Virus record (IMG/VR): IMGVR_UViG_3300046518_000157
Coordinates: 1-24,397 of that record
DNA: 24,397 nt
From: a virus
Taxonomy: Duplodnaviria; Heunggongvirae; Uroviricota; Caudoviricetes
Strand: one strand, 5' to 3'
The notes under the pieces were generated by a model. That model was not told the origin of the DNA. It saw only the letters and a program-made list of their open reading frames with translations, and did no database searches. The translations under genes were made by a program, and so were the position numbers. Shown here piece by piece: positions 1-18,049 of the stretch (positions are counted from its first letter, which is position 1; each line of letters begins with the position of its first letter).

Positions 1-1
1 C

Positions 2-1090
2 GGTCGTCAGCCTATTATGATGAACGTTTCTGGCTACATTTTTGATAGCCAAGATAACTCATGGTTCACTGAATTTCTAAGCATGTATGGTCAAGTTCTT
101 CGAGGCACAGAACTAGCTCGTAACTACGAGTTGGTTAAGCTCGTCCTGCCTAACATGTACGTGATTGGGTCATTTACTCACGTTGATTGGGGTCAGAATT
201 CAAGCCGTGATACTGACATTCAGTTTTCATTCCAGTTTCTTGTCAAACAACTTGTACCTATTGCTATTCGTGTACCCGGCGTACCCACATCTAGTGACAG
301 TGGTCTAATCAACTTTGATGCTATTCCTAACTTCGTTAGTCAGGCAGGTATTAACACGGTTAAGAACAGCATGTCTAGTCTACAGAGTTTGATTCAAGAT
401 CCTACGTCTACCTCAGGTCAAATTGCAGCAGGCATTACTGGCATTGGATCTGGATTAAGCGCCGGTATCTCTGATCTTGGAAATACATTCGGCGTTGGGT
501 CTAACACATTTGGCTTTACAACTGATGGATCTGGATCAAGCGCAAGCTCATCTATAGGATCTGCTTTAAGCAGCGCTGGTGACACTATTTCAGGCATCTT
601 CTCAAGCGTAAGCGCTAACTTGACTGGACTACGTGCAAGTCTGTTTTCACCTATATATGGTGTGCTTTCATCACTGACTAAGCTTGTTAAAAATGCAGCG
701 GGCTCTATAAACTCGATATTCAATGCCCTTACAAGTCCTGTACGTGATATAATCCGTGCTGTTTCAGATATCAGTAACCAAGCTGTAGGCATTGTTAATC
801 TCGTTAATCACACGATTCAAGGCCTGACCGGCCAAGTTACATCGATTGATAATCAAGTACGTATTGCACTTGGAGGTCTTAAGAACGCAGCGGGAGTTAT
901 TACCAATGCTCCTAAGACAATATCTCAGTCAATCGGTGAGCTAGTCAACTCTGGAAGACTACCTATTACTACTGGATATCTACAGAACAAACCGATGGCA
1001 AGCTTATCTTCATCGGGGACTACTCCATCGAAACTAGCATTGCTAAATTCCGGTAAGAAATACACAGCACAATCAGGCGCATCACTATGA
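2..1090 (+). CDS. Baseplate/tail-tube-like structural protein with a long Ser/Gly/Ala-rich C-terminal region; probably 5'-truncated by the window edge
   Basis: The frame is open from base 2 (GRQPI) into the called ORF 17..1090. The N-terminal part (FTHVDWGQ...DIQFSFQFLVKQ) resembles myophage tube/baseplate beta-fold proteins. It heads the baseplate cluster and has an ATGA overlap with the next gene. Confidence 0.55.
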   Translation, partial: GRQPIMMNVSGYIFDSQDNSWFTEFLSMYGQVLRGTELARNYELVKLVLPNMYVIGSFTHVDWGQNSSRDTDIQFSFQFLVKQLVPIAIRVPGVPTSSDSGLINFDAIPNFVSQAGINTVKNSMSSLQSLIQDPTSTSGQIAAGITGIGSGLSAGISDLGNTFGVGSNTFGFTTDGSGSSASSSIGSALSSAGDTISGIFSSVSANLTGLRASLFSPIYGVLSSLTKLVKNAAGSINSIFNALTSPVRDIIRAVSDISNQAVGIVNLVNHTIQGLTGQVTSIDNQVRIALGGLKNAAGVITNAPKTISQSIGELVNSGRLPITTGYLQNKPMASLSSSGTTPSKLALLNSGKKYTAQSGASL

Positions 1091-1938
1091 GAAGCTATTC
1101 AAGCCTTTTAGTTTTTGAAGACATTTACGACTTCGTACCCAATCAGAATAAAGATGTAACTAGCCTGGCTAGTATGATCTTTACTCCGAATGTTCCTATT
1201 GTAGAAACGAATTGCAATACTACGCTTGGACTTTTTCAAACCGTCAACTACGAACTAGAAGGTGCTGTAGAGCTAGCTACAGGACAGATTATTAGTCGAG
1301 ATAGAATCGACAATCTTCTGTTTCAAGGTATTTACTTAATAGCTACACGTACCCTCTCTACCTGTATTTCAAAAGGTGGAGTGTGCCAAGCATGCTATCA
1401 TGCAAGCAATCAACGTTTAGATGTTCCTGCAATTGGAACACGAGTAATCATTCAGCCAGAGTACATTTCTTCTACCGACGTTATTAAGGCATCGGCTGGT
1501 GAAAACACATGGCCACTCAGCGCTCCTGATAACACTTATCAGTTCACATCTATTTATGTAGATGGTGTAGCTCAGGATGCCAGTACCTATACTGTTGCCA
1601 ATCAGGTTCTTACGTTTAATACTCCGCTTGCTACTGATGATAACGTAGTTGTGCACTTCTCAAGCTACAATAGAGCACCTTATCTTGTTTACTTAGCAAA
1701 GACATATTCCGGTTCTCTACTGGGAATGAAACCGCTTCCTTCACAGTTACTTCCTATCCGATCACTTCTGTTGGGTAGCTTAATTCCTCAGAATAAGCTA
1801 GAATTAATTGTAGAGTATACAAAGGAAGTAGACATAATCCCACAAGAGTACAGGGATTATATAGATACAGTTAACGATACGCTTGAAAGAGCGCTTTACG
1901 TTCTTGCTATCAATTGTATCTATGCTAACGTGAACTAA
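1087..1938 (+). CDS. Chimeric protein: RNA polymerase beta' (RpoC)-like Cys4 zinc module, virion-type beta domain and helical C-terminus
   Basis: NVPIVETNC43NTTLG ... IATRTLSTC93ISKGGVC100QAC103Y matches the RpoC pattern DVIIRETDCGT..G ... IRS..TC....GVC..CY. aa131-190 resemble the beta domain at the N-terminus of the 13707 fibre. No NADFDGD catalytic motif. Confidence 0.7.
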   Translation: MRSYSSLLVFEDIYDFVPNQNKDVTSLASMIFTPNVPIVETNCNTTLGLFQTVNYELEGAVELATGQIISRDRIDNLLFQGIYLIATRTLSTCISKGGVCQACYHASNQRLDVPAIGTRVIIQPEYISSTDVIKASAGENTWPLSAPDNTYQFTSIYVDGVAQDASTYTVANQVLTFNTPLATDDNVVVHFSSYNRAPYLVYLAKTYSGSLLGMKPLPSQLLPIRSLLLGSLIPQNKLELIVEYTKEVDIIPQEYRDYIDTVNDTLERALYVLAINCIYANVN

Positions 1939-1940
1939 TA

Positions 1941-4900
1941 ATGTCTTTATTCGACGCAATCAAAAATGTAACCATTAACACAGTGATGTCCCAGAACAAG
2001 GGATTATCAAAAATTACGAGCACGACGTTCTCACAGGCTGGGACGTCGATTAATTCAATTCGTAATCAAACACTGGGTTCGGTTAACGCCTCTCTTGGTA
2101 ACACAGACTATAGCAGTCAGCTATACAATCCTGTTACCCAGATGAGCAACTTCGCCCTATCTCAAGCCACGGGGCCAGGACAGCAAGATGCAATCGCAAC
2201 AGCTACCAACAATGCGTATGCTGCGGTTGACTCTAGTTTTAACGCTGCTTTCCCTTCCGGCACTAGCGTAACTCTTTTTGATATTCAAACAGCCTCGACT
2301 CAGGCAATTTCTAGTGGTGTTAGCAATTTAGCTAACTCCTTTTCAGCTATTGACGGAAGTTTCGTATCACCTGCTCTAAGTATTGGTAATGCTGCTCTTG
2401 TAGGTGCAGGTAACACTGCTGATGCATTAGTCACGTCTGTATTTAACACAGCTACAAACACAGTCAATTCAGCGGTCTCTGCTGTGAACAGTACAGTAGC
2501 AAGTGTAGTTGCAGCTAAGAATGCTATTTCCTCTGCTGCGAACTCAGCTATTGATCTAGTCTCTGGAGCCACTAGTGCAGATTCAGCCGCAGCTAGTGTA
2601 TTTGGCGGTGCAGGTGTTTCAGCAGTTGATGAGGGCAAGGTTGACGGCACAGTTAATAACACCGATATTATCTATCAAGACGTCAAGCTTTACATCGAAG
2701 GCGTACAAGTTCCCTTCGAGGCTATTTCTATTTCACAAGGCATTGGTTCACTGCCTACGGCAAGTATTCAGATTCCGCCACAGCCAGGTCTGCTTGACAT
2801 CGCTCGTTACTACCAACCCAAAGTACATATCTTTTACTCAGATAAGAACTACGGGGGAGATCGTCTCCTATTCTGGGGACACATCCTAGTCGGTAACTAC
2901 TCTAAGTCAAGACAGAATAGTAGCTCAAGCATTACGTTCCATTGTGAACACAAGAACTCCTTGCTCTCTACTGTGACTCTGGAGTTTTCAGGCTATGCTT
3001 CAAACGCTACTACTATCCTGAATGACCAGAATCCAGACCAAGCTACAGCTAAGGTAAACAACCTGAATTCAACCTTGGCAATTATTAAGGCTTTGCAGGG
3101 CATTACAGGCCTCCAGAGCGATTCCAAAGACTTGCTTGACCCAAGTAACACAACTGTCTCTCAAGCCGATGTATCGAAGCTTAGCAAGCGTTTCCAGAAC
3201 TTTGAAAAAAGACTGATAGGCATGCCTTCAGCTATAATGAACTTCTGGAATCAACTGAAGAAGGAATGCTACGCGGATATTACGCTTAATACTATTATGG
3301 CTGACATGTACATCCCTCTCGTTGAGGATGGGCTTGGTTTCTTTGACCGCATGGCAGGACACACAATAATCGAAAATCTTATCGATACTAGCAAGCAGGA
3401 CTATTGTCCAGGCGGAGTCACGCCTTCATCTACTGCTAAGCCAGTGATGGTCCCTCCTGCGTACAGACTTAATAGCATTTCAGCAATCAAGTCTTCACTC
3501 GCAGTTAGCACCATCGGTAACATGCTTGGCTTCTCAGGGGAGTTGACAACGTTTCTACAGATGTTCTCTGATTTCTACTCAGCAGTAGAGTATGAGATTC
3601 TGACTCTGGCGAGCCCTGCAGAAGTTCCAGTAGATCCAGATGCTAACGTAGGTAACATGGATATTCCATCGACATATGCGTCGGTTGACAAAATGGCTAT
3701 TGAGACAATCATTAAGCCACAGATTCCGTTTTACTACAGCCCTATTTGTAACGTACTGTTTCCTAAGATGTATGGAACTATCAACGTTACTCAAGATGAG
3801 TCGCAGATTCCTAGCCGTCTGTCAGCTTTCTCAGACATTATTCCAGGAAGTCAAGGCCAGATTGGTAGTCAGTATCGTGCTCCGAATTCTATCCGTGAAG
3901 CCGTAGCATACGGTGCAGCTATGTCAAATGCTGCGAAAGGCACAAACCTGCAAGTAAACCTTCAAGGTACTACTGGTCAGTCCTTTAATGTGCCTGGTAA
4001 ATATGAAGTAGGCCGTGGTGTTCGTCATAAACGTATAACCCTGCCTAACTGGCTGGCACAGTTGCTAAAGGGTAAGATTCAGGACATTGGTTCACCCAAT
4101 AACGAAACGTGGCCTGACAAAACTGATCCGGACTATAAAGCTCTTTGCGATCTTCATGCAGCTTGGATTGATCGATATGGTTTCGACGTTACAGTCTTTG
4201 ATGACGGCACGTCAGAAGATACACGTAACACAGATAAGGATTCACTAGACCCATACTCACAGAAGTCTGATATCCATCCGTTTCAACGTCTACTCTTTGC
4301 TACGGCAGATTATGAGTATACGAAAGCTGTTGTGGCTTCACGTATGGGTAACGTTGATGGCATTTTCAATCCGTATATTGTCCCAGGTTACCCAATGGAG
4401 ATTTTGGATGATTCACCTAATGCGCCAAGCTTCCATGCAATGTGCTCATCAGTGACTCACTCATTTACTTCACGTGGTATTTCGACAAGCATTGGCTTCG
4501 TTGCAGCGTGTACATATACTGAGATGGTTAACTATTACATGCAGCCACTTCATCCTTGGCTTCAGACGGCTCTTGCCATTGTTAATACTGAACCTGGTCA
4601 ATCAGGCAAGTCTTCAACAGATGGTGATGGCTATGGTAATCCTCCGGATGATCTGCAAGTAAACAGCACGATTCTATTTAATGAAGCAGCTAAGTTTGCA
4701 GCCGATGAATTCTACAAGAGTGTACTTGGTGTAAGCGCAGTTGCTATCGATGATCTATACGATTTTGAAATGGGTCGAGTTATCCCTGTTAAACGCTCAT
4801 CTGGATTGTTAGTTGAAAGCACGGAAACATCAAAGCCTACTGCTAATGGCGGTGAGGCTAATGACTTCTTGACAGCAGTGGGTAATCTACGTCTTGTTAT

Positions 4901-5156
4901 GAGACCGATTGAAGGTAAGAAAAGTATTCAAACCAAGTTTGGTATTACATTTATTGATTTGACACCTACTAACTACAATCCAACATCAATCAGTTATCAG
5001 AACCCTGCATTGGATTCTGCAACATTGCTTGAACCAGGTGCTAGCCTGTTCTTGGATTATCAGGAAGTTGCTGACTTCATTAATAACTCTGTTGCAACAG
5101 CTAAAACAGAAGATACGACATCCAGCTCATCTGAAGTTGGTGGTCACGTAGCTTAA
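1941..5156 (+). CDS. Large baseplate hub-like protein (gp27/gpD/VgrG-like) with an Ala/Ser-rich N-terminal extension
   Basis: 1071 aa. YQDVKLYIEGVQVPFEAISISQG begins the globular part, and FNPYIVPGYPMEILD...SSVTHSFTSRG resembles late hub motifs. Baseplate context. Confidence 0.6.
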   Translation: MSLFDAIKNVTINTVMSQNKGLSKITSTTFSQAGTSINSIRNQTLGSVNASLGNTDYSSQLYNPVTQMSNFALSQATGPGQQDAIATATNNAYAAVDSSFNAAFPSGTSVTLFDIQTASTQAISSGVSNLANSFSAIDGSFVSPALSIGNAALVGAGNTADALVTSVFNTATNTVNSAVSAVNSTVASVVAAKNAISSAANSAIDLVSGATSADSAAASVFGGAGVSAVDEGKVDGTVNNTDIIYQDVKLYIEGVQVPFEAISISQGIGSLPTASIQIPPQPGLLDIARYYQPKVHIFYSDKNYGGDRLLFWGHILVGNYSKSRQNSSSSITFHCEHKNSLLSTVTLEFSGYASNATTILNDQNPDQATAKVNNLNSTLAIIKALQGITGLQSDSKDLLDPSNTTVSQADVSKLSKRFQNFEKRLIGMPSAIMNFWNQLKKECYADITLNTIMADMYIPLVEDGLGFFDRMAGHTIIENLIDTSKQDYCPGGVTPSSTAKPVMVPPAYRLNSISAIKSSLAVSTIGNMLGFSGELTTFLQMFSDFYSAVEYEILTLASPAEVPVDPDANVGNMDIPSTYASVDKMAIETIIKPQIPFYYSPICNVLFPKMYGTINVTQDESQIPSRLSAFSDIIPGSQGQIGSQYRAPNSIREAVAYGAAMSNAAKGTNLQVNLQGTTGQSFNVPGKYEVGRGVRHKRITLPNWLAQLLKGKIQDIGSPNNETWPDKTDPDYKALCDLHAAWIDRYGFDVTVFDDGTSEDTRNTDKDSLDPYSQKSDIHPFQRLLFATADYEYTKAVVASRMGNVDGIFNPYIVPGYPMEILDDSPNAPSFHAMCSSVTHSFTSRGISTSIGFVAACTYTEMVNYYMQPLHPWLQTALAIVNTEPGQSGKSSTDGDGYGNPPDDLQVNSTILFNEAAKFAADEFYKSVLGVSAVAIDDLYDFEMGRVIPVKRSSGLLVESTETSKPTANGGEANDFLTAVGNLRLVMRPIEGKKSIQTKFGITFIDLTPTNYNPTSISYQNPALDSATLLEPGASLFLDYQEVADFINNSVATAKTEDTTSSSSEVGGHVA

Positions 5157-5172
5157 GGAGTAAAATAACACT

Positions 5173-5400
5173 ATGTCAATCGCATCAACTATCACAGACG
5201 GATTCGCAGCCCTTGGAGAAGTTAAAGGCGGGCTGCCTAGAAGCGTTAATATCCCGACTAACATTTACCAATCAGGTATGTTGTCTGACACCTCATGGGC
5301 AGACGACTGCTTTGTCTATCAGAAGTTTTCTGCTAGGCTTCAGGCCTATATGATTGGTTACGTTAACAGCGTTTACTCTAACTACAGCGTTTATCTATAA
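5173..5400 (+). CDS. Hypothetical protein (75 aa)
   Basis: AGGAG at 5156-5160 upstream. Its stop overlaps the sigma start (TAATG). Confidence 0.6.
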   Translation: MSIASTITDGFAALGEVKGGLPRSVNIPTNIYQSGMLSDTSWADDCFVYQKFSARLQAYMIGYVNSVYSNYSVYL

Positions 5401-6113
5401 TGGAAGAAACAGAAAAGCCCGCATGGATCGATTATCGATCAAAAGACCAAGAGCTATACGACCAGTGGAAAAAGACTGGGAGTAAAACTCATCTTGGCGC
5501 TCTAGTTAATCAGCTTAGCGGCGTTATTTACCAAGAAGTGAATCGTCAATCAGGTAGCTTGCCTAGTGCTGCTTTAAGTGCGGAAGCTAAGAAGTGGGCT
5601 ATTAAAGCTATTCACAGCTACGACCCTGCAAAGGGTACACAGCTCTCTACTCACGTTACGAATTATCTTCAGCGCGTACGCCGTCTTAATTACAAGTATC
5701 AAAATGCAGTGCGTCTTCCCGAGAATATGCAACTCTTGTACAGAGATTGGAACTCTGCAAATCAGGAGCTAGCAGATCAGCTTAATCGTGATCCTACTGA
5801 GGAAGAACTTGCTAAAGCGTTGGGTTGGTCAAAGCCTCAAGTTATCAAGTACAAGAACTCTCTTTACTCGGACTTGGTTGAATCAGCATCCGACAAACCA
5901 GCAGAATTCACTCAGTACAACGAGAATGCTGAGCTTATGGCATATCTTATGAGTCAGCTATCTTCTGATGAAAAATTTATTTTCGACAACGTTAAAGAAA
6001 TGCCTGCACCGAAGATCGCAGAAAAGCTAGGTGTGAACATCAATCGCTATAATTACATCAAGAAACAGTTGATTAACAAAATCGAAAAAACCAAACGAGA
6101 AATCGGACTATAA
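5400..6113 (+). CDS. Phage-encoded sigma-70-family (FliA/WhiG/SigF-like) sigma factor
   Basis: Region 2-like AIHSYDPAKGTQLSTHV, region 3-like ELADQLNRDPTEEELAKALGWS, region 4 HTH LSSDEKFIF...KIAEKLGVNINRYNYIKKQLINKI. Confidence 0.85.
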   Translation: MEETEKPAWIDYRSKDQELYDQWKKTGSKTHLGALVNQLSGVIYQEVNRQSGSLPSAALSAEAKKWAIKAIHSYDPAKGTQLSTHVTNYLQRVRRLNYKYQNAVRLPENMQLLYRDWNSANQELADQLNRDPTEEELAKALGWSKPQVIKYKNSLYSDLVESASDKPAEFTQYNENAELMAYLMSQLSSDEKFIFDNVKEMPAPKIAEKLGVNINRYNYIKKQLINKIEKTKREIGL

Positions 6114-6505
6114 TGGCAATCGACGCTAATTCGGCAGTAGGCCAAGCACAAAATATCTACAATAGCTTGGCTAAATACTTTTCTGACATGACTACATATC
6201 TTGGCAGTGGAGGCGCTTGTCCGGATTTCAACGATTATGTTGGTACGATTGATTTTTCAGAGCTTCACCGAGTAACAGCTATGGCTCAATCAGGCAGCTC
6301 CAATTATCCAAACGGTGCTGCTATTGAGAGTATTCATCACATCACTTCTGTTCTGCGCGAGTTTGCACTTCGTACAAAGAACAAGGCTCAATACTATGGT
6401 GATGGTCAAGGTGAAGCTACTGACGAATCTAATTACTACGCTACGCTTAAGACTTCTACCGTAAGTACGTTAAGCGGGATCGTAACACCTGGAGGTACAA
6501 TGTAA
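6113..6505 (+). CDS. Hypothetical protein (130 aa)
   Basis: TAATG-coupled on both sides. No recognisable family. Confidence 0.65.
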   Translation: MAIDANSAVGQAQNIYNSLAKYFSDMTTYLGSGGACPDFNDYVGTIDFSELHRVTAMAQSGSSNYPNGAAIESIHHITSVLREFALRTKNKAQYYGDGQGEATDESNYYATLKTSTVSTLSGIVTPGGTM

Positions 6506-7038
6506 TGGCTGGTTTAAACTTTAACTTTAACCAACGTATCGGTACGACCTCCAACCTGCCACAAGGCGGGACTTATGACTTGCTATTTATTTCGTTTCCA
6601 GGTGGCTTCCCACAGAGCCAACTTATATTCGAAATTGCTGATACTCCGCGTAAAGTAACAGGTCTCCAGAAAGTAGCTCAGATGTTCCTGAAACTTCTCT
6701 TTACTCGTAAAGGTAGCAATGTTATCATCCCGGCTCAGGGTACGTTCTTCTCAGACTTCGTAATTAATGCAAATCGTGTTGAAGATACTGACACTACTTT
6801 GATCGCTGATCTAACTGAGCAGATTACCGATGCGCAAGGTCAGTGTCAGTACATTATGAATACCACCGATTCTGACGTTGCAAGTCAATTAAAGACTGTG
6901 CAAATGCTCGGTATTGACGTAACCAAAGAATCAATTGTTATCTATCTGCGTATTCTGACCAATGCCGGAGCTATGGCTTCTATCGCCGTACCGTTCCCAC
7001 AATTGGATCTTCCTCTTTCAGATCAAATGTCTAAGTAA
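6505..7038 (+). CDS. Baseplate wedge subunit, gp25-like
   Basis: KVTGLQKVAQMFLKLLFTRKGS...P..GT motif typical of gp25/gpW-like proteins. Lies immediately upstream of baseplate J. Confidence 0.7.
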   Translation: MAGLNFNFNQRIGTTSNLPQGGTYDLLFISFPGGFPQSQLIFEIADTPRKVTGLQKVAQMFLKLLFTRKGSNVIIPAQGTFFSDFVINANRVEDTDTTLIADLTEQITDAQGQCQYIMNTTDSDVASQLKTVQMLGIDVTKESIVIYLRILTNAGAMASIAVPFPQLDLPLSDQMSK

Positions 7039-7051
7039 TAGGGCTGGTGCG

Positions 7052-7085
7052 TTGCATGTAGAAGGATTAAACTACTACAAGTAAC
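7052..7085 (+). promoter_or_regulatory. Candidate promoter TTGCAT-N18-TACAAGTAAC upstream of baseplate J
   Basis: Lies in a 63-nt intergenic gap, with the same geometry as the motif at 18843-18876. Confidence 0.35.
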
Positions 7086-7101
7086 GTACTGACCTATAAC
7101 T

Positions 7102-9498
7102 ATGGCAAATTTCTACTCTGTTCTACCTGGCCTTCAACCCTCAGCGCAAGATATTCTTGAAGCCGAGCTTCTAGCCAAGCAAATTCTTGAAGCACAATAT
7201 CCAGACCTAGACCTCCGAGAAGGTACAGGGCTTCGTGATATGGTTCTGCGACCATCTGCTATGCTACTGGCACTGGTTCGTCTTGGTATCGATTACTACT
7301 TTGCTCAGAACACTATTGCTGGAGTAAATGATACTACTCCTACTAGCATCGTTGATAACATTCTTTCAAACTGGTTTATTAACCGTAACCTTGGTACTCG
7401 TGCTGTTATTAGCGCACGTCTATTCTTTGCCAAGCAAAAGAACGTATCTCTAACGACTGATATCTTTTTCTCAACCGATAACATCTCTAAGTTCTTCCCT
7501 CAGGCTGCAGTTACATTCAGCTCAGGCACGCTTACATATGATGCTTTCCAAAACGAATACTATGTTGACGTTGACCTAGTTGCAGAAGCAGAAGGAACAC
7601 AGTACAACATCGGTTCAGGCTCACTTCTTTACTTCTCTAACTTTGATCCGTACTTCCTTCACGCAGAAATTAACTTCCTGAAGGATACTTCAGTATCATC
7701 AGAGACTAACGAAGAGTTTATTACACGTGCTCAGAACGCTATTTCTACACGTAATCTGATTAACGATCCATCAATCAGTTCAAACCTGCAGAATACCTTT
7801 AACTTTCTGGATAAGATCGTTTCAATCGGTATGGGAGATCCTGAAATGATTCGAGATCAGATTCAGGCTGTATTCACAGGTCAGCTAGCACAGCTCATTA
7901 CTCAGCTTACCAGCTCAGGTACTACTGCGACTGCTACCTTGGCTAATCACGGCTACAACTCAGGCCAAACTGTAACCATTGCAGGTGGTGCTCCGACGAC
8001 ATACAACGGTTCATATACGATTACCGTAGTTGATACTTCGCACTTCACGTATCAGATGGCTACGGCTGCAACTAACGTAACAGTTCTTCCTACTGTTCAG
8101 GCTGTGAACTCACCATTGCTTATCCATAACGGCGGCATGGTTGACGTGTACTGTGGCAACACCATTGCTACGTCAATCGTACAGGTTACAACAGACGATT
8201 TTGGTGATGCTGACTTGACTGGCGCAATCTACAACTTCACACGTAGCTCTGTAAGCGGTGGAAGCTCAGACGATACTATTCCTTTTCTAGCCACGATCTC
8301 TGCTTCAAGCACGACGGTTGCAGCTAATCTAGGTCTTGTTCACGTTGCTTCAACTAGCCACGGACTATCAACTGGCCAAATGGTTACAGTGTCAGGTCTT
8401 GTTGAAACGTTGCCTATTACTTCGATTTCATGCTCGGCAATTACTGTAACTGTAGTTTCTGCTAACCACGGTCTGACAAGTGGTACGTCTGTAACCATTC
8501 AAGGCGTAACACCGATTCAGTACAATGGTACGTTCCCGATTAACGTAGTTGATGCTAATACTTTCAACTACATCGTATCATTTAACATTGCAACGCCCGG
8601 TTCTGGCTCATCAATGCTTATTGCCAACCCATCGCTTACAGGACAGTTTTCTGTAAACGTGCTAAGTGCAAATGCGTTTGACATTGTAATGCCTGGCCTT
8701 TGGACAAATGCTACCGTCACTAACAACATCGTTATTAACTATGCTGTACCATTTACCTTTAAAAACAAAAATACGCAAAGCCAAGCTATTACTGCGCTTA
8801 CTTGCACAGGTACTACTGTTACCGTAACAATTCCTAACCACGGAATTACTGAGAACCGCTATGTGACAATTCGTGGTGCAACTCCATCCGATTACAACGG
8901 TACATGGCTAGTAACTAACGCTCTTAATAAAGATCAGTTCCAATTCACAGTTCCAGTAACTATCGGAAGTCCTGGTTCAAATGCAGTATGTGATTCTGTT
9001 ATTCCTTGGTTCGATTATGGTTTTAGCTCCCGTCAAGACTTGGTTGTAAGCTTTGGTTCACTCTATGCTAATCAAACAGCAAGTTTCCAAATCAGCTTCT
9101 TTGATAACGTTGATAGCGTACAGTCATATCTAGAGAACTCAACAAACCGTGTACTGTGTGGAGATTTGCTTGCTCGTGGATTTAACTTCTACTTGATCGA
9201 TCTGTCAGTAACTGGCTATAATGGCGTGTCCCCAGATGCGACCGTAATTACTGAAACTACAAAGAATTTCTTCAGTAATATGAATCCAGGTGATACCTTG
9301 ATTCTTTCAGATCTTATGGCTCAGCTTTCACTAGCCGGTATTACGAATATCAAGACTCCGCTTGGCGTAGCTTACACTCATTACACTCGTGACTTGATTC
9401 CTGCAACCACAGGTATGATCACTGACTATCTAGATCCAGCAGATAGAACTAACATCTTTATACTGAACACTGTAACAACGAATAACCAAACAGTTTAA
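7102..9498 (+). CDS. Baseplate J-like (gp6-like) wedge protein with four inserted beta-rich NHG repeats
   Basis: N-terminal LDLREGTGLRDMVLRP and ETNEEFITRAQNAISTRNL are baseplate-J-like. The central xxNHGxxxGxxVTIxGxxPxxYNGxxxIxVxDxxxFxY repeats resemble the E1 FCCH-like domain seen in phage virion proteins. Confidence 0.8.
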   Translation: MANFYSVLPGLQPSAQDILEAELLAKQILEAQYPDLDLREGTGLRDMVLRPSAMLLALVRLGIDYYFAQNTIAGVNDTTPTSIVDNILSNWFINRNLGTRAVISARLFFAKQKNVSLTTDIFFSTDNISKFFPQAAVTFSSGTLTYDAFQNEYYVDVDLVAEAEGTQYNIGSGSLLYFSNFDPYFLHAEINFLKDTSVSSETNEEFITRAQNAISTRNLINDPSISSNLQNTFNFLDKIVSIGMGDPEMIRDQIQAVFTGQLAQLITQLTSSGTTATATLANHGYNSGQTVTIAGGAPTTYNGSYTITVVDTSHFTYQMATAATNVTVLPTVQAVNSPLLIHNGGMVDVYCGNTIATSIVQVTTDDFGDADLTGAIYNFTRSSVSGGSSDDTIPFLATISASSTTVAANLGLVHVASTSHGLSTGQMVTVSGLVETLPITSISCSAITVTVVSANHGLTSGTSVTIQGVTPIQYNGTFPINVVDANTFNYIVSFNIATPGSGSSMLIANPSLTGQFSVNVLSANAFDIVMPGLWTNATVTNNIVINYAVPFTFKNKNTQSQAITALTCTGTTVTVTIPNHGITENRYVTIRGATPSDYNGTWLVTNALNKDQFQFTVPVTIGSPGSNAVCDSVIPWFDYGFSSRQDLVVSFGSLYANQTASFQISFFDNVDSVQSYLENSTNRVLCGDLLARGFNFYLIDLSVTGYNGVSPDATVITETTKNFFSNMNPGDTLILSDLMAQLSLAGITNIKTPLGVAYTHYTRDLIPATTGMITDYLDPADRTNIFILNTVTTNNQTV

Positions 9499-9500
9499 CT

Positions 9501-11702
9501 ATGACTCGTGCTAACTTCACTGAAAACGGCCTGAACATCGGGCAGAACCTAACGAATATGACGTACCTATATGGTATTTCAGATTTCTTCACGGTTCTGT
9601 TCGAGGATACAGACCGTATGAACCTTATCCTTGAAGCTGGCACAGAAGGGGCTGCAGAAACTTACAGCAAGTTCTTGCAGCTTACCTCGTCAATTAGTCT
9701 TGCAACGATTCAGGAAACTATTGGCTCATCTATTGAGCTTGTTATTCTTCCTGCATCCAACGCAGTGCAAGGCCAAGTAAACACGTACAAGGTCGGCAAG
9801 GCAATTACCTCAAGTCGATACATTGCTAACCGTCCATTTCTTCCCACGGTAATTCTTGAGGAAGACGTTGACTATCATCTAGAAACAGCACTTGACGGAA
9901 CTATGAATGTTCGCTTTGCTGCTGACATTTCAGATAAGGGCTTTTCATCTAACACAGATGTCAATGGCGTTCGTCAGTATGCAATGTGGTTCGTAGATGC
10001 AACAATCGATGAAAACCTTATCTCAACGATGTTCGGTGATTTGATTGGCGTTGATCCTGAGAGTTCAACTGATGCATTCTACAACTTCGTTTACGGCCTA
10101 TACTACGTATACGTTAATGGCCCTACTCTTGATTTAGTTCGCAAGGGATTAAACCTTGTTCTTGGCATGCCTTTGGCTCGTGCAAATGAGACTGTTCTTG
10201 ATGTTCGTAACTATCTTGAGACTGACCAGTACATCGTTATTACTGACCAGAACCAATATCTAATTCCTTTCGGGGTTGTTCCTAACGTTGTACCGGGAGA
10301 TAGCATCGTCACAGGTCAAGAGTTAGCTCAATGGGTTGAGATTCAGGATTACCTGAGTGATGGAGAGTGGTGGCTTAATTTACAGATTCCAGCTTCAATC
10401 ATTCCTGAACTACCGGCTGGTCAGAAGGATAGATTTGCAACTGAAGGTAGTCACTTCGACTATCTAATGCGCAACTACCTAAAGAAACACACGTTTCTAG
10501 TAAACGTGAAGGTAGACTCGTTTAAAAATATTCAAACGTTCCAGCAGCTATCGGACATTATTAACAAAGTAAAACCTACGTACACTCAGCCGATTTACGT
10601 TTGGTCTATTACTGCGATGACAGAAGAGCTTACTCTAAGCGATGATCTGTCTACGTACCGTGTTGATCCTAGCCGTTGTGAAAAGATTCAATATCCTATC
10701 GCTCGTATGCGCAGGGATAATACTGATGACCCTATTAAGCGTGGTTGCCCTACGTTCATTCGCTCTAACGTACCAATGTGGGTCACAAAGATTCTAGGTA
10801 CTGACGAGCTTATCAACGGAAATCAGACTACTGTTAATGGCGGTTCACTATCAGGGTTTATCAACCCTCAGGCTCAATTCCGTGCAAATACAACACAGGA
10901 AACATCTTGGCTTACTGCTATGTTCCAACGTGGACATGACCAGACTCAGATTCGCCGTGACAAAGTAGCGTTCAACCGTAGTCGTGGTGACTTGACAGTT
11001 GCTAATGGCAAAGCCGTAACTTGGTACGACATCCCTGCCGGTATGAAGGTTGTTCCGCTTTACATTACCAAGCAATACGACATTGCTGCTAAATGCTTAT
11101 CTGTAGGCACAGACGTTCCGCCTACTGGTCAGTGGGTGTTTTCCATTTTCAACCCTTCTAATTCTGGCCTTGCAATTAACGTGGCGGCGATTAATGATAG
11201 CGGATCGTCTTTTACAATAAACCCGCTTGTAACGTTTTTTAACACTTTGTTTTTCCGTGGCACTAACGTAGGTTATCTGGGAGCATTGATTCCTGATCTT
11301 GGAATGCAAGCAACGTATGCGCCTACTCCAGCAGACATTGGATTAGCAGACTATTTGATGGGCGTTCGTATTCTAGAAGATACAGTTGGAATTTACTGGG
11401 TCACAGAGAATGCTTCTATTGAATCTCCTCAGTACTTCCCAGTAGAAGAAATGGATAGAGCTGTTATTAGTTATGATATGCCGTTGACTCGTGGACACCA
11501 AGCAATTGGAACTCCGCATTATACTTTGCGCGGCTCAGATCTTAACTATACTGGTGATTCGAGCATTGACGGCACTGCGATTAATGAAGAATCCGGCTAT
11601 AATAACTCTATAACTCCGAACACTTATTCGGACAAATATAACTCGTCAGTTACAATTACCAGAGGTGGTGCAGTTATCACCCATGCCCAAGAACTTAGTT
11701 AA
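9501..11702 (+). CDS. Baseplate wedge protein (gpI/gp7-like), 733 aa
   Basis: Follows baseplate J. FGDLIGVD...FVYGLYYVYVNGPTLDLVRKGLNLVLG and IINKVKPTYT resemble tail protein I-like wedge segments. Confidence 0.6.
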   Translation: MTRANFTENGLNIGQNLTNMTYLYGISDFFTVLFEDTDRMNLILEAGTEGAAETYSKFLQLTSSISLATIQETIGSSIELVILPASNAVQGQVNTYKVGKAITSSRYIANRPFLPTVILEEDVDYHLETALDGTMNVRFAADISDKGFSSNTDVNGVRQYAMWFVDATIDENLISTMFGDLIGVDPESSTDAFYNFVYGLYYVYVNGPTLDLVRKGLNLVLGMPLARANETVLDVRNYLETDQYIVITDQNQYLIPFGVVPNVVPGDSIVTGQELAQWVEIQDYLSDGEWWLNLQIPASIIPELPAGQKDRFATEGSHFDYLMRNYLKKHTFLVNVKVDSFKNIQTFQQLSDIINKVKPTYTQPIYVWSITAMTEELTLSDDLSTYRVDPSRCEKIQYPIARMRRDNTDDPIKRGCPTFIRSNVPMWVTKILGTDELINGNQTTVNGGSLSGFINPQAQFRANTTQETSWLTAMFQRGHDQTQIRRDKVAFNRSRGDLTVANGKAVTWYDIPAGMKVVPLYITKQYDIAAKCLSVGTDVPPTGQWVFSIFNPSNSGLAINVAAINDSGSSFTINPLVTFFNTLFFRGTNVGYLGALIPDLGMQATYAPTPADIGLADYLMGVRILEDTVGIYWVTENASIESPQYFPVEEMDRAVISYDMPLTRGHQAIGTPHYTLRGSDLNYTGDSSIDGTAINEESGYNNSITPNTYSDKYNSSVTITRGGAVITHAQELS

Positions 11703-11703
11703 C

Positions 11704-12216
11704 ATGAAAGAACTTATTAATCGCTTCGTTAAACGCTTTCTCAAGATGGTCAATCTTATTCCGCTTGAAGGCGTTTTAAGAGTAGAGAAGTGGTATCCTG
11801 ATGGCCGTAAAGAACTGGCTTTTGAAAAGAAAAACCTTATCGTACTTACGGCTAAGCAAGTTCTTCTGAGTAGCCTGTACGTAGCCAACCAGGTGTCTGA
11901 TCCAATCATTAATCTGAAGATCGGCACCGGTGGCTGTATCGACCCACAAGGCCTGTTCCCTAAGCCTATCAGCCAAGCTATGTCTTCGCTATTCACGCCT
12001 CTCCTTGACGTTGCTACATCGTTTACTATTAACAATGCGGCGCCTTCGGTTACGTTCATTGCTGACGTTGACCAAGGTACGGCTAACGGTCAATTGATCA
12101 CAGAAGCAGGTCTGTATAAGGCCAGTGCAACGATGTTTAATATCAAGACATTTCCTGGTATCCCGAAGACTAGCGAGTTCTCAATCCACTTCGAGTGGAC
12201 CATCCAGATGTCTTAA
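11704..12216 (+). CDS. Tail-collar / fibre attachment protein
   Basis: KNLIV...IGTGG...LITEAGLY...KTFPGIPKT.EF.I.FEWTI is the typical collar pattern. Start moved from 11665 to the ATG at 11704, just after the upstream stop; the ATG at 11746 is also possible. Confidence 0.7.
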   Translation: MKELINRFVKRFLKMVNLIPLEGVLRVEKWYPDGRKELAFEKKNLIVLTAKQVLLSSLYVANQVSDPIINLKIGTGGCIDPQGLFPKPISQAMSSLFTPLLDVATSFTINNAAPSVTFIADVDQGTANGQLITEAGLYKASATMFNIKTFPGIPKTSEFSIHFEWTIQMS

Positions 12217-16596: not shown

Positions 16597-16979
16597 TCTC
16601 GACTTTTTTAAACCTGCTTGCTGATGTAAATATACCGCTTGTTCTTAATTTCCTTATTTCAATAGGGATGGGTTTCTGTGGTTTCTTTTTTGCGTTTGTA
16701 ATTAAGAACAAGAATATCAAGAACAAGTGGTTCACGTCTCTTCGATACATTCTAATACTTCTCTCCATCTCAGCTTTCAGCAATGCTTACTGTTTAGGTA
16801 TTCTGGGCTACAAAGTGGTTCAGCCGAGCGAGTTACTTCTCCATCTATCAGTTTTAGTATTCATGCTTTGGGGAACAGCTTACTATCTATTCAATATAGT
16901 TGGCTCAGGCACAAGTCTAACTCAAGAGAAAGTATTAAAATTCATTGAGAAAGAACATTCAACTACGAGTACACAATGA
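16593..16979 (+). CDS. Second holin-like membrane protein (about 3 TM)
   Basis: Three hydrophobic segments with a Lys-rich loop (KNKNIKNK). ATGA-coupled to the previous gene. Confidence 0.5.
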   Translation: MISTFLNLLADVNIPLVLNFLISIGMGFCGFFFAFVIKNKNIKNKWFTSLRYILILLSISAFSNAYCLGILGYKVVQPSELLLHLSVLVFMLWGTAYYLFNIVGSGTSLTQEKVLKFIEKEHSTTSTQ

Positions 16980-17014
16980 TTGCTCGTAGTTTTTAGAAAC
17001 TATAAACTATGAGC
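16961..17014 (+). promoter_or_regulatory. Alternative-hairpin element over the start codon of fibre paralog 2, with mini-ORF MIARSF (16976-16996)
   Basis: 16961-16969 AACTACGAG is the exact reverse complement of 16983-16991. 16982-16992 GCTCGTAGTTT also pairs with 17004-17014 AAACTATGAGC (one G-U), which contains the ATG. Confidence 0.55.
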
Positions 17015-18049
17015 TATTTTGGTCTACCTCTTTACCCAGTATCTCCTCCTAATCAGCAAGCAGTAGTCACAATCGTCGGGAACACTACCCTTGGCGTTGG
17101 TGCAGCTACGTATGACAAACAGTTCATGATTACTGGTGCTGGCGGTTATACAATCACGCTTCCTTCACTTGATGGTGTGAATTTCCCATCCAAGTCATAC
17201 AGCATTTTCAATAGTAGCTCTGCTCTTTGCACAGTAAACTGCGCTGGTTCAGACACTGCACTTCTGCTTGGTTCAAGCTTTACTTCATTTTCTATTCTTC
17301 CCGGTGAACGTATTCTTGTTCAAAACATGGTTACGTCATGGATTGTAGCATTGGAGAGCGCTTCTAGAACTACGACTGCACCTCAATTTGATAGTACTAT
17401 TCGTAATGCAAGTACAGCTTGGGTTAGACAGTTTGGATTACAATACTCCGCAAATTTTGGAGTTTCTTCTAACGCTACTCTAACTGCAGCCCAAGTTGCT
17501 GGAGCGATTTGCAACATTCAAGGCAATAACATAACCGTAACTCTGCCCTTAACTTCTACAGCAGTTATTGGTACTAGAGTAGAATTTGTTAGTGGCGGAG
17601 GTACTAACACTATTCAACGGCAGGGCTCAGACGTTATTTCTACGAACTTTTCAAATAACGTTAACTCTATCGTTTTAAACGCTGGAGATTCAGCAACTTT
17701 GGTGTACATGGGTACTGGGCAATGGTACGTTGTAGGTGGATCAGTTCAGATTGGTTTATCTGGTTCGTTTCTGCCAAATTTTTCAAACAACGGTTTCCAA
17801 AAACTTCCTAGTGGATTGATAATGCAGTGGGGTTATAGCGCAGCAGTAGCGTTTAATACTACCACAATAGTAACCTTTCCTATTTCTTTTCCAACGCAAT
17901 GTATCGGAGTAACTGCTACTGCGTTTGGCGCGGCTGGAAATTATGCATCTCCTGAAGTTTTTAATAAGTCAACTACCAACTGTACCGTAGGTAACCCTAC
18001 TACTGGAAGTACCGCTACTGCTTACTTCGTTGTTGCAATTGGTAATTAA
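17009..18049 (+). CDS. Tail fibre / receptor-binding protein (paralog 2)
   Basis: Two tandem TITLP...GE/D...W.V domains, TTAPQFD...TAWVRQ, and a GFQKLPSGLIMQWG tip. Confidence 0.8.
   Translation: MSYFGLPLYPVSPPNQQAVVTIVGNTTLGVGAATYDKQFMITGAGGYTITLPSLDGVNFPSKSYSIFNSSSALCTVNCAGSDTALLLGSSFTSFSILPGERILVQNMVTSWIVALESASRTTTAPQFDSTIRNASTAWVRQFGLQYSANFGVSSNATLTAAQVAGAICNIQGNNITVTLPLTSTAVIGTRVEFVSGGGTNTIQRQGSDVISTNFSNNVNSIVLNAGDSATLVYMGTGQWYVVGGSVQIGLSGSFLPNFSNNGFQKLPSGLIMQWGYSAAVAFNTTTIVTFPISFPTQCIGVTATAFGAAGNYASPEVFNKSTTNCTVGNPTTGSTATAYFVVAIGN

Follow-up and report, generated by a model that had tools for sequence, protein, structure and literature searches.

According to reviews up to 2026, large phages have either multisubunit RNA polymerases without a sigma homolog, or sigma factors that work with a borrowed host polymerase (PMC7824862, PMC13282480). 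The virion polymerases of the phiKZ-like and AR9/PBS1-like phages are multisubunit enzymes related to beta and beta', with a split beta', neither alpha nor omega, and genes lying among the late genes; they are found in the particles and are thought to transcribe the early genes after injection. Each of them has two complete polymerase sets and lacks a sigma-70 homolog, and the specificity subunits, gp68 in phiKZ and gp226 in AR9, show no sequence similarity to sigma. T4 gp55, SPO1 gp28 and gp33/34, and phiEco32 gp36 are sigma-70-family proteins with altered promoter-contact residues that serve phage-specific motifs; they are made before the genes they activate, are not reported as parts of the virion and use the host core enzyme. 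Here we describe a 24,397-nucleotide (nt) window of viral DNA from the IMG/VR record IMGVR_UViG_3300046518_000157, which corresponds to bases 84223–108619 of a 181,435-bp contig with direct terminal repeats, and in which a baseplate operon carries the gene of a divergent sigma factor of 237 amino acids (aa; positions 5400–6113), named sigma_f hereafter.

The genome encodes a polymerase of the same make-up as the phiKZ and AR9 enzymes. Unlike in those phages, there is a single core set, far closer to the bacterial enzymes (E values of 1e-41 to 1e-63), and it is accompanied by two proteins that truly belong to the sigma-70 family, one being encoded in the baseplate operon. Sigma_f resembles the T4, SPO1 and phiEco32 factors in its altered promoter-contact residues and phage-specific motifs, and differs from them in that its gene belongs to a baseplate operon, its ortholog in the Salmonella phage Arash occurs in particles, and a phage core enzyme co-occurs with it. 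This phage group, having both a polymerase and sigma factors, is an exception to both statements of the reviews. The presence of the Arash sigma in virions is already in print (PMC10585845); a scheme with two sigmas on one core, and the promoter classes described below, were not found in the literature searched.

With a probability of about one half, we propose that sigma_f is a virion-borne initiation factor of the phage polymerase, which would be made late, packaged, and used to read TGGTATAAG promoters after injection, and that a second, RpoS-like sigma reads TAAAATA promoters.

Sigma_f is a divergent three-domain sigma factor

The 237-aa product is a real, divergent protein of the sigma-70 family with three domains. 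The sigma3 domain (regions 3.0–3.1) is recognized by Pfam Sigma70_r3 (E value 2.3e-7; score 31.3 bits, cut-off 25.3), and residues 34–231 match PHROG 351, "RNA polymerase sigma factor" (2.9e-13). With HMMER, residues 62–179 align to regions 2.2–3.1 of SigA (SigA residues 311–432, 2.3e-6) and residues 119–227 to regions 3–4 of FliA (2.7e-4), which places the sigma2 and sigma4 domains, respectively; Pfam Sigma70_r2 and Sigma70_r4 gave no match in sigma_f. The AlphaFold2 model, with a predicted local distance difference test (pLDDT) score of 77.5, matches SigD, SigA, RpoS and WhiG over its full length in Foldseek with a probability of 1.0, and its C-terminal helices span residues 189–197, 203–210 and 214–235.

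Among known sigma factors, sigma_f is most like those of group 3 (FliA/WhiG/SigD and SigB/F/G), with which it shares a similar size, the three domains, and the lack of region 1.1 and of the WW pair of region 2.3. Its best full-length sequence match is the FliA/WhiG model (residues 13–207) and its top fold match the model of Bacillus subtilis SigD. Unlike members of the FliA/WhiG or SigB/F/G subfamilies, however, sigma_f fails the group 3 NCBIfam cut-offs; its scores lie far under every curated subfamily cut-off (34.8 versus 189.6 bits for TIGR02479, 36.8 versus 234.35 for TIGR02980), and it therefore belongs to no named sigma subgroup.

The altered DNA-contacting residues pointed out in a preliminary description of this DNA are confirmed: STHVTNYLQ in regions 2.3/2.4 aligns with STYATWWIR of SigA, and INRYNY opens the last helix (214–235) of the C-terminal helix-turn-helix in the AlphaFold2 model. 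Region 3.0, the part of sigma that reads the extended -10 element, is also recognizable (Table 1). Residues T84 and H85, A103, R105, P107 and E108, and N213, R216 and Y219 are invariant family-wide, and the pattern N-x-N-[R/K/Q]-x-N-Y of region 4.2 is preserved in Arash and in the Vibrio phage D69.

The Arash ortholog is found in virions together with the phage polymerase

The sigma_f ortholog of Arash, Gp10, is 43.5% identical. In the published proteomics of Arash virions, which were pelleted after separation on a sucrose gradient, 467 spectra and 24 unique peptides covered 100% of Gp10 (PMC10585845). The beta subunit Gp206 had the highest count of all (128 unique peptides, 3516 spectra), and the beta'C subunit Gp216 was represented by 40 unique peptides and 1210 spectra; typical enzymes in the same table have 2–11 unique peptides (PMC10585845). 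From the published counts, we calculate about 2.0, 2.3 and 2.0 spectra per residue for Gp10, Gp206 and Gp216, respectively. The products of the neighboring genes, Gp7, Gp8 (44 unique peptides) and Gp11–17, are likewise virion proteins, and the second sigma Gp196 and Gp9 are mentioned nowhere in the paper (PMC10585845). Its authors report Gp10 in virions with beta and beta', mention early transcription as a possibility and call Gp10 RpoS; promoters, synteny and sigma pairing are not analyzed there (PMC10585845). Of the fates listed for this sigma in the preliminary description, packaging in the virion is thus backed by published data as far as the ortholog goes, and would extend to the present phage through that orthology.

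The phage encodes its own core enzyme and a second sigma

The bacterial-type polymerase of this phage consists of beta and a split beta', accompanied by the second sigma (Table 1); neither alpha nor omega was detected in the genome. Every related genome of sufficient length for checking carries the polymerase and both sigmas, and TAAAATA motifs lie ahead of all polymerase genes and of the sigma_f gene, all of which are on the structural strand. The host core polymerase had initially been expected as the partner of sigma_f; since the phage has its own beta, split beta' and second sigma, this need not be so. The second sigma, RpoS-like over its full length, retains region 1.2, the NLR of region 2.1 and the Y..WW..Q of regions 2.3/2.4. 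A recent common origin of the two phage sigmas by duplication was considered and rejected, their BLASTP match spanning 22 residues only.

The polymerase genes show some variation in arrangement. The beta gene shares one TAAAATA-headed operon with the portal gene (genome 18673–24296), in which a 632-aa open reading frame (ORF) is 45% identical to the Arash portal gp204. Beta and beta'N form one annotated frame of 1525 aa in Arash and are separated by about 3 kb and several ORFs in this genome. In two relatives, the RpoS-like sigma is divided between two frames with about 225 nt between them (G001, 8605–8961 and 9186–9596; G006, 16863–17854), an arrangement that could be due to an intervening element or be a genuine split. 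For gp196 of Arash (345 aa; 120656–121693), the annotated start is probably too far upstream: homology begins at 120833, where the ATG is directly preceded by a Shine-Dalgarno sequence and a TTGACT-N17-TACTAT promoter.

Two phage-specific promoter classes are divided between the strands

Three promoter types are distinguished hereafter: class 1, TGGTATAAG; class 2, TAAAATA; and class 0, the sigma-70-like promoter of the second sigma gene. The expectation of the preliminary description that this sigma should read non-host promoters agrees with the genome, which carries phage-specific, non-host motifs. The class 1 motif TGGTATAAG occurs in 39 copies on the minus strand, where about 2 are expected, and in none on the plus strand, and GGTATAAG lies within 100 nt upstream of 18 of the 153 minus-strand genes and of none of the 107 plus-strand genes. 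These sites precede the non-structural genes of the strand opposite to the structural one (replication, nucleotide metabolism, tRNAs) and are arranged as extended -10 elements, with G at -7. At 43 of 169 class 1 sites, against 6 of 169 in a control window, a -35-like TCAA is found about 21 nt upstream; this element is present in this genome (G000), in the related G001 and G002 and in D69, and is absent in Arash.

The distribution of TAAAATA is the reverse, with 22 copies on the plus strand and 3 on the minus strand (about 17 expected on the latter). It lies within 100 nt upstream of 18/107 plus-strand genes and 1/153 minus-strand genes (Fisher p 6e-7), and 16 of the 22 plus-strand copies touch intergenic DNA, which makes up 8% of the genome. 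No upstream element was seen across 110 TAAAATA sites. Since the motif is found ahead of tail genes, beta'C and the portal-beta operon, as well as ahead of an isolated endolysin gene in Arash, it is taken to mark late genes, the timing being deduced from gene content. The late promoter of T4, TATAAATA, is a -10-only element, which TAAAATA resembles.

Both motifs recur in G001–G005 and Arash; in D69, TAAAATA recurs and TG(T/C)TATAAG stands in place of TGGTATAAG. The class 0 promoter, TTGnnn-N16/17-TAcnnT, is found before the second sigma gene in seven genomes, and such sites are rare elsewhere in this one. When promoter hexamers were compared with sigma residues in eight genomes, no covariation was found: TATAAG and TAAAATA are invariant throughout, and only the bases at -13 to -15 and the -35 element vary. 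At two places in Arash (137622–137638 and 139398–139414), the two phage-specific classes abut back to back, CTTATACC being directly followed by CTAAAATA, to form compact divergent promoter pairs, one of which precedes beta'C.

Residue comparisons favor the pairing of sigma_f with class 1 promoters

Comparison of the two sigmas suggests that sigma_f reads class 1 and the second sigma class 2. T-12, A-11 and T-7 are common to TAAAAT and to the second sigma's own TTGnnn-N16/17-TAcnnT promoter; because the residues that read these bases are retained in the second sigma, it would suit both, and because the same canonical residues are changed in sigma_f, the latter would suit TATAAG with its G at -7. 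The region 4.2 helix of sigma_f is conserved in all five phages, the otherwise invariant R216 being replaced by Q in Arash only, and that of the second sigma is not conserved in Arash or D69; the presence of a -35-like element in class 1 and of a conserved helix in region 4.2 of sigma_f again favors their pairing. Arash, the sole phage with R216Q, is also the one without TCAA at its class 1 sites. In D69, whose class 1 motif TGnTATAAG differs at -13, sigma_f has a substitution and an insertion directly after region 3.0, and the QQ of the second sigma that corresponds to this altered site is invariant. The proteomics and the placement of the gene among those of virion proteins also point to sigma_f as the class 1 factor.

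Putative promoter and translation start of the sigma unit

The sigma gene is preceded by a 75-aa ORF, and a TAAAATA motif stands at the head of the pair (Table 1). The motif is kept at this spot in the clade with 81–100% identity and in a clade whose sigma is 56% identical; in D69 it lies 69 nt upstream of the unit formed by the small ORF and the sigma gene, and in G001 and G002 there is none at the sigma unit, the nearest being 9 kb upstream. In Arash, GGTATAAG occupies this spot before gp9-gp10 instead of TAAAATA, as its only same-strand copy. A same-strand class 1 motif always preceding sigma_f was therefore rejected as a rule, being true of Arash only. In this genome, no GGTATAAG occurs on the sigma_f strand upstream of the gene; the promoter of the preceding temporal class that marks a classical late sigma is found in Arash only. 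A scan of window positions 1–12000 for sigma-70-type promoters and terminators gave results at or below chance (16 found, 23 expected). As host-type matches are under chance overall, the TATAAT at 5396–5401, with TTTACT 18 nt upstream, is probably incidental and was set aside as a host promoter; it is a product of the stop/start overlap at this junction.

No Shine-Dalgarno sequence is visible upstream of the sigma_f start, so its translation is probably coupled to that of the 75-aa ORF. A TAAAATA beginning exactly 12 nt before an ATG is found at five genes of this genome (window 5161–5175; genome positions 44477, 53454, 80413 and 83589), at two in G001 and at one in G002, often with no Shine-Dalgarno sequence in between. 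A transcription start 6 nt after the TAAAAT hexamer would coincide with the A of the ATG, and the mRNAs of these genes may therefore be leaderless.

Proposed role of sigma_f and alternative explanations

In the scheme that we favor, sigma_f would be made late with the baseplate proteins, from transcripts of the long tail operon and of the TAAAATA promoter before the 75-aa ORF, and would be packaged alongside the phage beta and split beta'. Entering the next cell with the DNA, it would initiate the earliest phage-specific transcripts at the (TCAAt-N17/18-)TGGTATAAG promoters of the opposite-strand non-structural genes. The RpoS-like sigma would be made from its sigma-70-type promoter and would then move transcription to the TAAAATA promoters, that is, to the structural genes, the polymerase genes and sigma_f itself. 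Packaging in this phage, injection, and pairing with the phage core rather than the host core are presumed steps of this scheme.

Several observations weigh against it. Packaging would rest on an ortholog of 43.5% identity, and the 116 proteins of the Arash table include metabolic enzymes such as ribonucleotide reductase and kinases; the authors allow for carry-over (PMC10585845), and with so long a list co-purification is possible. Counted simply as a 7-mer, TAAAATA does not exceed chance in the window, and its standing as a promoter rests on strand, position and conservation. The assignment of each sigma to a promoter class is based on residue logic and two single-lineage covariations, and the extended -10 geometry of TGGTATAAG would also suit an RpoS-like sigma. 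The host-type promoter of the second sigma fits a cascade from host polymerase to second sigma to early and middle genes, and the sole same-strand GGTATAAG of Arash, before gp9-gp10, fits a system in which middle promoters switch on a late sigma.

These last points lead to the positive-feedback late switch envisaged in the preliminary description, which is possible yet fits the promoter and residue comparisons less well, and which we regard as the main alternative, though an unlikely one. The RpoS-like sigma, made by the host polymerase, would read TGGTATAAG promoters at early and middle genes, and sigma_f would read the late TAAAATA promoters, including its own; the polymerase and sigma_f of the virion would be carried over or have no role after injection. 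The conserved sigma-70-like promoter of the second sigma gene in seven genomes suits this order of events, as do the exact extended -10 geometry of TGGTATAAG, appropriate for a group 1/2-like sigma, the TAAAATA before the sigma_f unit in the G000 clade, G003 and D69, the single same-strand GGTATAAG of Arash at that place, as if an earlier class activated a late sigma, and the length of the Arash virion list. Such a loop, however, has a bootstrapping problem: G000, G001, G002 and G003 have no class 1 site directly upstream of the small ORF-sigma pair, and within 14 kb upstream the same-strand class 1 sites are single ones in G001 (3.2 kb), G003 (6.2 kb) and D69 (5.6 kb), two of them without a following ORF start. 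All core polymerase genes, too, sit behind TAAAATA. A late switch also leaves unexplained why beta is the top protein of gradient-purified particles and why Gp10 has 24 unique peptides where typical enzymes have 2–11; it gives a conserved region 4.2 helix to the sigma whose promoter, TAAAATA, has no upstream element, and it assigns G at -7, a poor fit, to the sigma with canonical residues.

That sigma_f, injected or newly made, uses the host core polymerase, leaving the phage beta/beta' to the other sigma or another factor only, seems improbable. Its bacterial-like region 2.2 and three-domain architecture would allow this, and reviews state that phage sigmas generally use the host core (PMC7824862, PMC13282480); but a phage polymerase is present in every sigma_f relative examined on a long enough contig, the spectra per residue of Arash Gp10 and beta/beta' are similar, and the phage beta'N retains the clamp coiled-coil, the binding site of sigma region 2. 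Re-use of the sigma fold in the structure or assembly of the baseplate, with no role in transcription, which would suit a gene fixed between the hub and gp25 genes and overlapping structural genes, an ortholog in virions, and regions 2 and 4 that Pfam does not detect, is very improbable given that the invariant residues belong to the DNA- and core-facing sigma segments (T84, H85; R95 through E108; N213, R216, Y219) and that there are exactly two phage-specific promoter classes for two sigmas.

We tentatively extend the favored role of sigma_f to a general scheme, in which phages of about 180 kb would inject a complete holoenzyme of their own, its sigma encoded and co-assembled with the baseplate, and a second phage sigma would afterwards take over the same core. 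If true, sigma_f would be the first packaged sigma, and the two polymerases of phiKZ and AR9 would have their counterpart in a single core with two sigmas. The path of these phages to host-independent transcription would be a simple one, requiring a single core enzyme, a sigma brought along in the particle and another made after entry, and their bacterial-like holoenzyme would serve two promoter types, both short and well defined. The model can be tested now in Arash, a cultured Salmonella member of the group.

The sigma gene keeps its place in the baseplate operon

The four genes of the sigma unit form the chain given in the preliminary description: all lie on the plus strand, and the three TAATG overlaps are read in the sequence (Table 1). 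The claim that the chain leaves no room for a promoter holds between the four genes and fails upstream of 5173, where TAAAATA occupies the 16-bp gap after the hub gene. The accompanying "jumbo" label does not apply, the genome of 181 kb being just below the 200-kb mark.

Table 1. Coordinates of the sigma unit, its motifs, and the genes of the polymerase and second sigma (window positions unless marked as genome positions)
Feature	Position	Strand	Remarks
1071-aa tail hub/cell-wall-hydrolase-like structural protein	1941–5156	+	directly upstream of the unit at 5173
TAAAATA, late-type (class 2) -10-like motif	5161–5167	+	16-bp gap, 12 nt before ATG at 5173
75-aa ORF, conserved, function unassigned	5173–5400	+	precedes the sigma gene
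TAATG stop/start overlap, 75-aa ORF/sigma gene	5398–5402	+
sigma_f gene, 237 aa	5400–6113	+	domains sigma2, sigma3 and sigma4
Region 2.3/2.4, STHVTNYLQ (aa 83–91)	5646–5672	+	STYATWWIR in SigA (HMMER alignment)
Region 3.0, AVRLPENM	5706–5729	+	TIRIPVHM in sigma-70
Region 4.2, start of recognition helix, INRYNY (aa 214–219)	6039–6056	+	RERIRQ in sigma-70
TAATG stop/start overlaps, sigma/130-aa ORF and 130-aa ORF/177-aa ORF	6111–6115 and 6503–6507	+
130-aa ORF, function unassigned	6113–6505	+	TAATG overlaps at both ends
177-aa baseplate wedge protein	6505–7038	+	gp25 fold
Second sigma (P0121)	genome 1102–1884		RpoS-like over full length, TIGR02394 4.7e-24
beta, 1133 aa	genome 20895–24296	+	Rpb2_6, E value 2e-63
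beta'N, 389 aa	genome 27234–28403	+	E. coli beta' residues 180–515, 8e-48; DFDGD motif, clamp coiled-coil
beta'C, 608 aa	genome 36187–38013	+	B. subtilis beta', 1e-41; own second zinc site

The position of a divergent sigma within late structural genes, also claimed at the outset, is borne out by conserved synteny. The order small ORF, sigma, ~130-aa ORF and gp25-like gene is found in 19 IMG/VR loci (55–100% identity), in Arash, and in the Vibrio phages D69, D181 and D148 (35.5% identity). The junctions among relatives are mostly overlapping or of 1 nt, one clade having a gap of about 20–30 nt between the 75-aa ORF and the sigma gene. The 75-aa ORF lies upstream of the sigma gene in 20 of the 21 loci checked; it is 44–97% identical to the window copy, with 14 invariant columns in a nine-sequence alignment, and gave no lead in Pfam, PHROG or Protein Atlas. 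A complex prediction for sigma_f and this ORF scored 0.00, which gives no verdict either way.

In its surroundings, the 177-aa protein matches 2ia7, T4 gp25 (5iw9), and baseplate proteins of type VI secretion and contractile injection systems when its AlphaFold2 model is searched with Foldseek (template modelling score of 0.64 by target and probability of 1.0 against 5iw9, the model itself having a pLDDT of only 60); it also matches the virion protein gp12 of Arash. The 1071-aa protein matches Arash gp8, annotated as "cell wall hydrolase, structural protein" (tblastn). The 130-aa ORF matches Arash gp11 (tblastn, E value 9e-10), which was detected in virions, and has no family or fold lead in Pfam, PHROG or Protein Atlas. 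With the gp25 fold in the unit, a tape-measure-like protein and the hydrolase-like protein encoded upstream, and proteins with gp53-like tail-fibre domains downstream, the baseplate setting is real.

A word-indexed search assigns 334 proteins to the sigma_f family at E ≤ 1e-3, and 108 clusters at 50% identity pass E ≤ 1e-30 when a profile is used. The synteny among late structural genes extends to two far relatives (profile E values of 5e-47 and 4e-44), both flanked by very large co-directional genes; one of the two adjoins a VanY cell-wall peptidase gene. Far relatives (P0152, P0158, P0168, P0156, P0260 and others) have N-terminal extensions of 100–450 aa, in which no virion-related family was matched. 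One extension family recurs with 35–48% identity and has a member with an FR47-like acetyltransferase match; other extensions carry NUDIX or DNA-ligase domains, and some may be gene-calling fusions.

The tail operon also encodes a 283-aa protein (window 1087–1938), the ortholog of the virion protein gp7 of Arash, which resembles the second zinc module of beta' (E value of 0.011 against beta' chains in the PDB; 1e-5 and 3e-5 against the beta'C genes of Arash and D69 by tblastn). This protein was rejected as a missing piece of beta'; because beta'C carries its own second zinc site, the 283-aa protein is regarded as an extra copy of the zinc module.

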